Source: Acidobacteriia bacterium AH_259_A11_L15
GTDB lineage: Bacteria; Acidobacteriota; Terriglobia; Acidiferrales; 2-02-FULL-67-57
Assembly (NCBI GenBank): GCA_027717655.1
Contig: JALLOH010000005.1
Span: forward strand, 284-64,283
DNA length: 64,000 bases
Reading direction: 5' to 3'
Position 1 is the stretch's first letter; each line of letters opens with the position of its first letter. The notes under the pieces are model-generated. The model did not search any database. It was not told where the DNA came from and saw only the letters and a list, made by a program, of their open reading frames with translations. A program made the position numbers and the translations under genes. Shown here piece by piece: positions 57,767-59,443 of this stretch.

Positions 57767-59443
57767 ATGAGCAAGGCCGCGAAACTCCGGGAATTGTTGG
57801 GGAGGACGCAGCCCACGCTGCTGGTGGGGGCGCACAACGGGCTGACGGCGAAGCTGGCCGAAGAGGCCGGCTTTGACGGGGTCTGGGCCAGCGGCTTCGA
57901 GATCAACGCCGCCCGCGCCCTGCCCGACGCCTCCATCCTCTCCATGTCCGAGCACCTGGCGGTCTGCGGCGAAATCAACGACGCCACCGCGCTGCCCGTG
58001 GTGGCCGACTGCGACAACGGCTTCGGCAACGCCATCAACGTCATGCGCCTGGTGCGCGAGTGCGAGAAGGCCGGCCTGGCCGGCATCTCCATCGAGGACA
58101 ACGTCTTCCCCAAGCGCTGCTCGTTCTACGCCTCGGTGAAGCGCGAGCTGGAATCCATCGAAGAGTTCAGCGGCAAGATTCGCGCCGCCAAGAACACCCA
58201 ACGCTCGCCGGACTTCGTGGTCATCGCCCGCACCGAGGCCTTCATTGCCGGCTGGGGGCTGGAAGAAGCGCTCAAGCGCGCCCGCGCCTACGCCGACGCC
58301 GGCGCCGACCTCCTTCTGGTCCACTCAAAGAAAAACACCCCGGAGGAAATCCAGGCCTTCGCCCGGCGCTGGGACCGCCCTGTGCCCCTGGCCGCCGTCC
58401 CCACCATCTACAAGCAGACCACCGCGCAGGAACTCTACGAGCTGGGCTGCCGGCTGGTCATCTTCGCCAACCAGGGCATCCGCGCCTCGGTGAAAGCGGT
58501 CCGCGAAGCCCTGACCGAGCTCCGGGAAAAGCAGTTCGCCGCCGCCGTCGACCCCCGCATCGCCCCGCTGGAGGAAATCTACCGGCTCGTGGGCGTCTCT
58601 GAACTCCGTGACCAGGAAGCCCAGTTCCTCCCCGCGCCGGAGAAGACCACCGCCGTCATCGTCGCTGCCGGGGTGGGCTTCGAGCGCGAGCTGATGCCGC
58701 TCATCAAGGACCGTCCCAAGGCAATGTGGGAGGTGGGCGGCAAGACGATTCTCGAGCGGCAGGTCGAGCGCCTCCGCGCCCACGCCATCAAGGAGATCGT
58801 CGTCGTCCGCGGCTACAAGAAGGAAGCCTTCCCGGCGCTCGACACCGTCCGCTACGTCGACAACGACCGCTACGCCCAGACCCACAACCTGGCTTCGCTG
58901 TTCTGCGCCGAGCCGGCGCTGGAGGGCCGCGTGCTCGTCCTCTACGGCGACATCCTCTTCGACTCCAGCATCCTCGACCGCCTGCTGCGCGCCCAAGCCG
59001 ACGTCGCCCTGGTGGTCGACCACGCCTGGCAGGAGAGCTACCAGCGCGGCCAGCTCCACCCGGTCAGCCACCCCGAGCTGGTGCAAACGCAGAACTCGCC
59101 CCTCTACAAGAACCGCTTCCTCCCCGCCGCCGACGGCAACCGCGTCACCCGCATCGGGCGGACCATCGAACCCGCCCAGGCCCAGGCGGAGTTCATCGGC
59201 ATGGCGCTGTTTTCCCCGCGCGGCACGAAAATCCTTCGCGACACCTACCACCGCCTGACCAAGGTCGCCGACCAGCTCCCCTTCCACGAAGCCGCCGGCT
59301 TCCAAAAGGCCAGCCTCTCGGACATCCTCCAAGAGCTGCTCGACCAGGGCCTGCCCGTCGCCGCGGTCGATATCTACAAGGGCTGGATGGAAGTCGACAC
59401 CTTCGAAGACTACGTCAAGGTATGCGAGCAGATACAGCTCTGA
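57767..59443 (+). CDS. PEP-mutase-family protein (non-canonical signature) fused to a C-terminal nucleotidyltransferase domain
   Basis: The N-terminal roughly 290 aa is collinear with PepM ([50 protein letters not shown]), but the signature reads [12 protein letters not shown] (58094-58126) instead of EDK-x5-NS. The C-terminal half is NTP_transferase-like: [10 protein letters not shown]...RPKAM...YGDILFD...[10 protein letters not shown]. Confidence 0.8.
   Translation: [558 protein letters not shown]

Follow-up and report, generated by a model that had tools for sequence, protein, structure and literature searches.

Results

A PEP mutase-like fusion protein with a variant lid

We analysed a stretch of 64,000 nucleotides (the window) from contig JALLOH010000005.1 of Acidobacteriia bacterium AH_259_A11_L15. 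At positions 57767-59443 it encodes a protein with the fold of phosphoenolpyruvate (PEP) mutase, PepM, the gateway enzyme to nearly all biological compounds with a carbon–phosphorus (C–P) bond. The protein is fused to a nucleotidyltransferase, its active-site lid departs from the motif treated as diagnostic of PepM, and we suggest that it belongs to an early-branching, conserved PepM subfamily. The features concerned are:

57767..59443, plus strand: 558-residue fusion of an N-terminal PEP-mutase-fold domain and a C-terminal LicC/PntC-like nucleotidyltransferase domain (Pfam, PDB alignments, AlphaFold, Foldseek)
58655..59020, plus strand: NTP_transf_3 (MobA/LicC-like) nucleotidyltransferase core, residues 297-418 of the fusion protein (Pfam, PDB alignments)
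58094..58126, plus strand: active-site lid E110-D-N112-V-F-P-K116-R-C118-S119-F120, in place of EDK-x5-NS (translation, PDB alignments)
58100..58102, plus strand: Asn112 codon AAC, equivalent to Lys116 of Mytilus PepM and to Gln in lyases (alignments)
58118..58120, plus strand: Cys118 codon TGC, equivalent to Asn122 of Mytilus PepM, Thr118 of phosphonopyruvate hydrolase and Cys123 of Escherichia coli PrpB (alignments)

Pfam assigns residues 7-252 to PF13714 (PEP_mutase; 4.5e-58, 197 bits) and residues 297-418 to PF12804 (NTP_transf_3; 8.9e-14). Residues 294-408 also match CTP:phosphocholine cytidylyltransferase (1JYK, E = 2e-12, HMMER against the PDB). The translation of 57767-59440 has AGISI directly before E110 and Tyr directly after F120, and the lid segment aligns without gaps (HMMER) to PDB chains 5UNC (PepM of Streptomyces platensis, VTIEDKRFPKVNSF), 1M1B (Mytilus PepM, ACLEDKLFPKTNSL) and 2DUA (phosphonopyruvate hydrolase, with EDK-x5-TS, IVMEDKTFPKDTSL). 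These three independent alignments rule out a mis-registered motif. The lid thus reads as the original prediction had given it, with EDK-x5-NS missing, and the Mytilus-like N-terminal stretch ending in HSKK that it cites is also found on alignment to Mytilus PepM. In Mytilus numbering, Lys116 is replaced by Asn and Asn122 by Cys, while Lys120 and Ser123 are retained. A sequencing error or a pseudogene is ruled out as well, since the reading frame is uninterrupted and hundreds of independent assemblies carry this motif.

Fold and family scores

The best PDB matches are PepM and phosphonopyruvate hydrolase (5UNC 9e-85, 2DUA 6e-73, 1M1B 4e-72), with methylisocitrate lyases at ∼ 5e-33. PF13714 places the domain among the isocitrate lyase/PEP mutase α/β-barrels, and the AlphaFold model has a mean predicted local distance difference test score (pLDDT) of 85.8. 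The values of 71-75 for residues 111-130, the lid, are as expected because the lid is mobile. Target-normalized template modelling scores (TM-scores) from Foldseek are 0.92 for 5UNC, 0.91 for Mytilus PepM, 0.91-0.92 for the hydrolase and 0.83-0.86 for methylisocitrate lyases. On the NCBIfam models for other family members the protein scores well below the cut-offs: 269 bits on TIGR02321 (phosphonopyruvate hydrolase, cut-off 374.4), 189 bits on TIGR02317 (prpB, cut-off 354) and < 35 bits on isocitrate lyase models.

Sequence identity is 41-48% to canonical PepM (EC 5.4.2.9; 1M1B/1PYM, 5UNC) and 47% to the hydrolase of Variovorax sp. Pal2 (2DUA/2HRW). The hydrolase, too, departs from PepM at the site equivalent to Asn122; it differs from the query in having Thr rather than Cys there, an EDK rather than an EDN lid, a position nested within the canonical PepM group and a catabolic role, where the context of the query is biosynthetic.

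Conservation of the CS lid

A homologue search of 5.8 billion proteins gave 2477 matches at E ≤ 1e-20. The nearest 120 clusters (formed at 90% identity, 52-97% identical to the query and nearly all fusions of ∼ 555 residues) all carry ED(N/S)-x-FPK(R/K/Q)-CS. Of these, 118 have EDN-x5-CS; P0091 has EDS-x5-CS, and P0086 proved to be an alignment artefact that resolves to EDN-CS. We refer to proteins with Cys-Ser at the end of the motif as CS-type.

For a wider survey, 50%-identity representatives were searched exhaustively, using the mutase domain only. A tally of the best 150 representatives plus references gave 98 EDK-NS, 20 EDN-CS and 16 EDN-NS lids; EDN-HS (2), EDN-SS (1), EDS-CS, EDY-CS and the hydrolase-type EDK-TS/SS make up the minor types. 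Among these representatives are stand-alone CS-type proteins of ∼ 290-310 residues that lack the nucleotidyltransferase domain. Further variants near PepM have EDA-SS, EDQ-NS, EDA/EDG-NS or EDH-NS (for example P0128, P0133, P0146, P0166, P0130, P0208 and P0199), and some PepM relatives with non-canonical lids are large fusions of 623-801 residues.

Scanning species-representative genomes with the patterns FPK[RK]CSFY (lid) and ADCDNG[YF]G (metal site) confirmed relatives in 429 species-level genomes, and an ED(N/S/Q)-x5-CS lid was present in every one of 80 loci fetched from such genomes. CS-type hosts belong to Acidobacteriota, Binatia, Nitrospirota/Nitrospinota, Planctomycetota, Armatimonadota, Rokubacteria, Bdellovibrionota and Polyangiaceae (Myxococcota). 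Cultured carriers are Sorangium cellulosum So0157-2 and So ceGT47, several further Sorangium strains and Minicystis rosea DSM 24000.

We then set 136 CS-type domains against 94 canonical ones (Mytilus numbering, also used for W44 and H190 below). Position 122 is Cys in 100% of the CS-type sequences; position 116 is Asn in 99% of them and Lys in 100% of the canonical ones. The full set of positions that separate the groups is L48F, T88N, K116N, N122C, x125Y, Q130R, W/Y237F and F276Y; half of these eight are in the mobile lid (residues 115-133). Common to both groups are W44, S46, G47, D58, D85, D87, E114, D115, K120, S123, R159, E161 and H190; W44, S46, G47, D58, D85, D87, E114, K120, S123, R159 and H190 are each 88-100% conserved in the CS-type set. 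The Mg2+ site (D58, D85, D87, E114), the phosphoryl-holding R159 and H190, and K120 and S123 are all present in the query, as in canonical PepM, and reach 98-100% conservation in CS-type proteins.

Position in the tree and comparison with the lyase lid

Two trees were calculated. In the first (143 rows, rooted on PrpB), canonical EDK-NS sequences form one group (SH-aLRT, the Shimodaira–Hasegawa-like approximate likelihood ratio test, 99), with Mytilus PepM and 5UNC among its members and the hydrolase nested inside it; every EDN-type lineage (CS, NS, HS, SS) lies outside it, towards the root. The second tree (84 rows, with eight lyase-like outgroup sequences) gives, from the root outwards, Q..CA proteins, several CS lineages, the fused CS group with the query, stand-alone CS proteins, EDN-NS/HS proteins and the canonical crown. 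Support for the ingroup against the eight lyase-like sequences is 100/99, and the crown node is weak (86/43). The group of the query therefore lies outside the group that holds all characterized PepM and hydrolase enzymes, nearer to the lyase root. Cys-bearing lineages form a basal comb in both trees, and the strongly supported branches force at least three changes; an approximately unbiased (AU) test did not reject a single origin for all CS rows (p = 0.77), the constrained tree scoring above the quick free search. The arrangement is suggestive of, but does not prove, a series EDQ..KRCG → EDN..KRCS → EDN..NS → EDK..NS.

In a MAFFT alignment Cys118 shares its column with the catalytic Cys123 of E. 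coli PrpB, the residue replaced in the C123S mutant structure 1XG3 (a Foldseek match), and K-R-C is identical in both proteins, as is the spacing E-D-x-x5-C. PrpB-like proteins of other genomes carry EDQVxPKRCG[HF] at the lid. The earlier likening of K-R-C to the lyase K-(K/R)-C-G-H loop thus reflects real homology. The likeness ends after the Cys, where lyases have G-H and the query has S-F, its Ser being of the PepM type. The query also has EDN for the lyase EDQ, is only ∼ 30% identical to PrpB and isocitrate lyase, and retains the PepM-type W44 and H190; PrpB does not align at the latter position.

Neighbourhoods of the relatives

A split decarboxylase lies directly downstream of the fusion gene in 38 of the 80 loci, and a homologue of a stand-alone nucleotidyltransferase adjoins the core in most of them. 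An aminotransferase of the 2-aminoethylphosphonate (AEP) type (Aminotran_5) occurs in 13 loci, an aldehyde dehydrogenase in eight and Zn-alcohol dehydrogenases in five. These three activities are branch points already described for phosphonoacetaldehyde (PMC8942020). The aldehyde dehydrogenase accompanies the core in Chloracidobacterium and Blastocatellia relatives; a Nitrospinota metagenome-assembled genome (MAG) has two Zn-alcohol dehydrogenases with the core, beside hopanoid genes; a Binatia MAG has Aminotran_5, a nucleotidyltransferase and a CDP-alcohol transferase; and in Sorangium the four-gene core adjoins a CDP-alcohol transferase. Adjacency to a decarboxylase is not a universal rule, for about half of the 80 loci have none within 10 kb.

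As a separate observation, the cluster of the Nitrospinota MAG (L010:15760-20562) abuts genes for a squalene-hopene cyclase and an HpnG-like PNP_UDP_1 protein, and in three Binatia loci (L034:11684-12667, L047:11397-12686, L052:11875-12840) the gene after the PepM-nucleotidyltransferase fusion encodes, instead of a decarboxylase, a ∼ 320-residue protein with prenyltransferase/squalene-hopene-cyclase repeats. CS-type phosphonate genes are thus repeatedly linked to isoprenoid or hopanoid lipids in Binatia and Nitrospinota.

Search for other sources of phosphonopyruvate

Five genomes whose CS locus lacks a decarboxylase were checked (two Binatia chromosomes and Polyangiaceae, Planctomycetaceae and Nitrospirales MAGs). 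All five encode a decarboxylase elsewhere, one copy being unsplit and above the cut-off at 489 bits. On both Binatia chromosomes α/β decarboxylase genes are followed by an aminotransferase and a nucleotidyltransferase, and the aminotransferase of one of them (G001) passes the equivalog cut-off for AEP aminotransferase (TIGR03301, 361.9 versus 360.8). No PepM homologue in any of the five exceeds the cut-off of TIGR02320, the PepM model; the CS-type proteins score best (278-303 bits), and the remaining homologues are lyase-like, with 100-145 bits and KRCG lids.

Within the phylum of the window we sampled 401 genomes. Canonical PepM occurs in 11 (380-412 bits), each time adjoining an unsplit decarboxylase, and the EDN type in three, the window's included (288-298 bits), each time adjoining a split one; no genome of the 401 has both. 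The window's own genome (75.6% complete) contains no second PepM, only an isocitrate lyase and one weak match. A second, canonical PepM that does the real work was not found in this genome at its 75.6% completeness, in the five others, complete chromosomes among them, or in the phylum sample. All eight variant-carrying genomes checked have a decarboxylase and no canonical PepM; these genomes are related, and the pattern is consistent but not statistical proof.

This isocitrate lyase is canonical (EDQLSSLKKCGH), and its gene lies directly downstream of a malate-synthase-like gene (L002:874-3383, contig C88). The two form a glyoxylate-shunt pair, unrelated to the phosphonate cluster.

The gene cluster in the window

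The fusion gene opens a run of four genes that point the same way and overlap at their starts and stops, and further genes of the cluster lie upstream:

43956..44786, plus strand: NTP_transf_3 nucleotidyltransferase at the upstream edge of the cluster (PF12804, 1.1e-19)
49992..51026, plus strand: LPG_synthase_TM (UPF0104, flippase-like) membrane protein (PF03706, 5.9e-23), which recurs in relatives
51133-52956, plus strand: AsnB-type amidotransferase, accessory and lineage-specific (Pfam)
within 52737-54095, plus strand: TagF-like glycerophosphotransferase, accessory and lineage-specific (Pfam)
54121..55509, plus strand: CDP-alcohol phosphatidyltransferase with an N-terminal NTP-transferase-like half, 462 residues (PF01066, 7.2e-10; NF041135, IPCT/DIPPS, 1.3e-11)
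59422..59844, plus strand: α subunit of a split phosphonopyruvate decarboxylase, 140 residues (TIGR03297, 8.3e-25; TIGR03845, 6.7e-21)
59832..60311, plus strand: β subunit of the split decarboxylase, 159 residues, binding thiamine diphosphate (PF02775, 2.4e-17; TIGR03297, 4.4e-44; TIGR03846, 2.6e-44)
60311..61078, plus strand: stand-alone PntC/LicC-like nucleotidyltransferase, 255 residues, the last gene of the four-gene core (PF12804, 1.4e-15)

The ATG of the α subunit overlaps the 3′ end of the PepM gene by 22 nucleotides, and the GTG start of the β subunit overlaps the α stop region. Both subunits are unusually short, 140 and 159 residues versus ∼ 160 and 188 in Binatia and Nitrospinota relatives, and the match of β to TIGR03297 is confined to positions 171-297 of the 360 in that model; the short form (136-140 and 157-165 residues) also occurs in Chloracidobacterium and further acidobacterial relatives.

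Homologues of the CDP-alcohol phosphatidyltransferase occur in 14 of the 80 loci, Sorangium also having one, and the protein encoded at 54121-55509 is likely a head-group transferase. A large phosphodiesterase/sulfatase-like protein is also encoded upstream. The cluster has four nucleotidyltransferase-type domains alongside the AsnB-type amidotransferase and the TagF-like transferase, and its head group may differ from AEP, 2-hydroxyethylphosphonate (HEP) or phosphonoacetate. The same arrangement, with the AsnB and TagF-like set, recurs in a 76%-identical relative (L009).

Between the CDP-alcohol transferase and PepM genes lies a block (55510-57766) of low GC content (45-50% versus ∼ 65% in the flanks), with an AAA_15/AAA_21/DUF3696 ATPase gene (55590-57023) and a 159-residue open reading frame (57027-57506). 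L009 has a different gene in its place.

Discussion

A probable PEP mutase in a phosphonolipid or envelope pathway

We propose that the product of 57767-59443 is a genuine PEP mutase that feeds a phosphonolipid or surface/envelope-phosphonate pathway, and judging from sequence, predicted fold and gene context we put the probability of this at roughly three in four. It is favoured because the metal- and phosphoryl-binding residues are kept, sequence and fold are PepM-like, the gene is coupled to a decarboxylase, and no canonical PepM stands alongside. The original prediction had left two options, a diverged mutase and a C–C lyase or hydrolase; the same observations favour the former, and positive support for the latter did not emerge.

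According to our model, an early-branching, conserved PepM subfamily would convert PEP to 3-phosphonopyruvate, and the translationally coupled split decarboxylase would pull the unfavourable equilibrium forward to give phosphonoacetaldehyde. The fused nucleotidyltransferase, the downstream one or both may then activate a derivative of the aldehyde by nucleotidyl transfer, and the CDP-alcohol phosphatidyltransferase, with other membrane proteins, would move the activated group onto a lipid or envelope acceptor. Such a pathway would resemble known phosphonolipid and phosphonyl-tailoring clusters. Fusion of PepM to a PF12804 nucleotidyltransferase is itself known from canonical enzymes (PMC6697681), which are likewise coupled to phosphonopyruvate decarboxylase; the partner of the query group differs in that it is usually split into α and β subunits. 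The 'Group 1 phosphonolipid' or CDP-OH ppm neighbourhoods (Yu et al., 2013, as summarized in PMC8942020) and the Pnt clusters (PMC6697681) share, so far as these accounts describe them, the Ppm-nucleotidyltransferase fusion, the decarboxylase, the extra nucleotidyltransferase, the CDP-alcohol phosphatidyltransferase and an optional AEP aminotransferase or aldehyde dehydrogenase. The version in the window differs from those described in having AsnB and a TagF-like transferase and no aldehyde-acting enzyme.

Several findings weigh against the proposal. The diagnostic motif E-D-K-x5-N-S is absent, so the protein fails one operational definition of PepM, and its 285.7 bits on TIGR02320 are below the equivalog cut-off of 319.55; CS-type relatives score 278-303 bits and canonical PepM of the same phylum 380-412. 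In both trees all EDN/CS lineages fall outside the group of characterized enzymes. A change at position 122 can alter the chemistry, because PepM (Asn) and the hydrolase (Thr) differ there; most authors credit the Asn122 to Thr exchange for the difference between the two activities (reviewed in PMC7916636). The α and β subunits of the decarboxylase score about equally on phosphonopyruvate and sulfopyruvate decarboxylase models, and ∼ 46 of the 401 phylum genomes have split decarboxylase-like genes (100-180 bits) without a PepM homologue (E ≤ 1e-60), for example G138:C8:61904-62898, G259:C114:2856-3861 and G329:C72:2039-3021. For both of these reasons a decarboxylase is not by itself diagnostic of a phosphonopyruvate substrate, and the PepM-less genomes rule it out as sole proof of phosphonate chemistry; the AEP aminotransferase and the overall logic of the cluster carry more weight. 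Finally, the window cluster (43956-61078) lacks any aminotransferase and any aldehyde or alcohol dehydrogenase that would act on phosphonoacetaldehyde.

The lid cysteine

Most likely the Cys stands in for Asn122 and covers the phosphoryl/enolate pocket on lid closure; it is probably a leftover from a lyase-like ancestor. A bolder interpretation would make the EDN...KRCS enzymes a surviving intermediate between lyases and PepM, in which the lid Cys takes part in the chemistry as a phospho-Cys or a general acid and which would either form C–P bonds by a mechanism unlike that proposed for the canonical enzyme or supply the split decarboxylase with a product other than phosphonopyruvate; we regard this as unlikely, if worth keeping in mind. 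Slightly less probable is a PEP mutase with a catalytic Cys, acting for instance by a phospho-cysteine double displacement or conferring sensitivity to redox state or thiol reagents. For Mytilus PepM a dissociative metaphosphate route has been proposed. The invariance of the Cys (136 of 136 sequences), its co-variation with the lid and pocket changes L48F, K116N, x125Y and Q130R, and its location at the position of Asn122, a residue described as hypothetically touching the phosphonyl oxygens (reviewed in PMC7916636), speak for a catalytic Cys. The EDN background, however, also carries Asn (16), His (2) or Ser (1) at this position among the 150 representatives, so that the position tolerates non-nucleophilic residues in close relatives.

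Activities other than mutase

A little further down the scale, and improbable in our estimation, is an isocitrate lyase-superfamily lyase, hydrolase or decarboxylase in which the lid Cys serves as general acid on a 2-oxo or phosphono acid; such an enzyme could cleave phosphonopyruvate or PEP, or make a different 3-substituted pyruvate for the decarboxylase. The alignment of K-R-C with the catalytic K-R-C123 of PrpB, a lineage that branches between lyases and canonical PepM, the score below the PepM cut-off and the ambiguity of the adjacent decarboxylase towards sulfopyruvate are all compatible with it. It has to contend with the replacement of the lyase G-H by S-F and the retention of H190 and W44, which are specific to PepM and the hydrolase, and with contexts that are biosynthetic (nucleotidyltransferases, CDP-alcohol transferases, AEP aminotransferase) and not catabolic, as would be expected of a hydrolase. 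Moreover, phosphonopyruvate would have no source in genomes that encode the decarboxylase and AEP aminotransferase, and we know of no plausible non-phosphorus substrate for the CS-type active site.

A PepM-like domain devoid of catalytic activity, acting only as scaffold or regulator of the fused nucleotidyltransferase, is very improbable, for although both the motif and the model cut-off are failed, the metal and substrate residues and the variant lid are strictly conserved across phyla at 52-60% overall identity, and stand-alone CS-type proteins exist.

Implications for phosphonate producers

Surveys of phosphonate producers have used a perfect match to EDKX5NS as their filter (Rice et al., 2019, PMC6697681; Li and Horsman, 2022, PMC8942020; Acker et al., 2022, PMC8931226), as has a 2025 survey of actinomycetes (PMC12723261). 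Rice et al. (2019) dropped 22 fused PF13714 proteins because the motif was absent (PMC6697681); the preprint of Acker et al. allowed up to two mismatches beside ppd, and the published version applies the strict motif (PMC8931226). Inventories of the 'Group 1 phosphonolipid' and Pnt kind, so far as those accounts describe them, require the perfect motif, and the CS subfamily is filtered out. Our literature searches found no description of an EDN/CS-lid subfamily.

Motif-filtered surveys thus miss the EDN...CS group, and a strict EDKX5NS filter would also discard all EDN-NS, EDN-HS, EDN-SS, EDA-SS, EDQ-NS, EDA/EDG-NS and EDH-NS types; in our phylum sample it would miss 3 of 14 putative producers. 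Asn122 and Lys116, although treated as diagnostic, would not be required in the CS group. The question is directly testable, since Sorangium cellulosum and Minicystis rosea DSM 24000 are in culture. The apparent lid series from lyases to PepM may offer a route to study how C–P bond formation evolved from C–C lyases. If the CS-type proteins are working mutases, phosphonate and phosphonolipid production by soil and sediment bacteria would have been under-counted.

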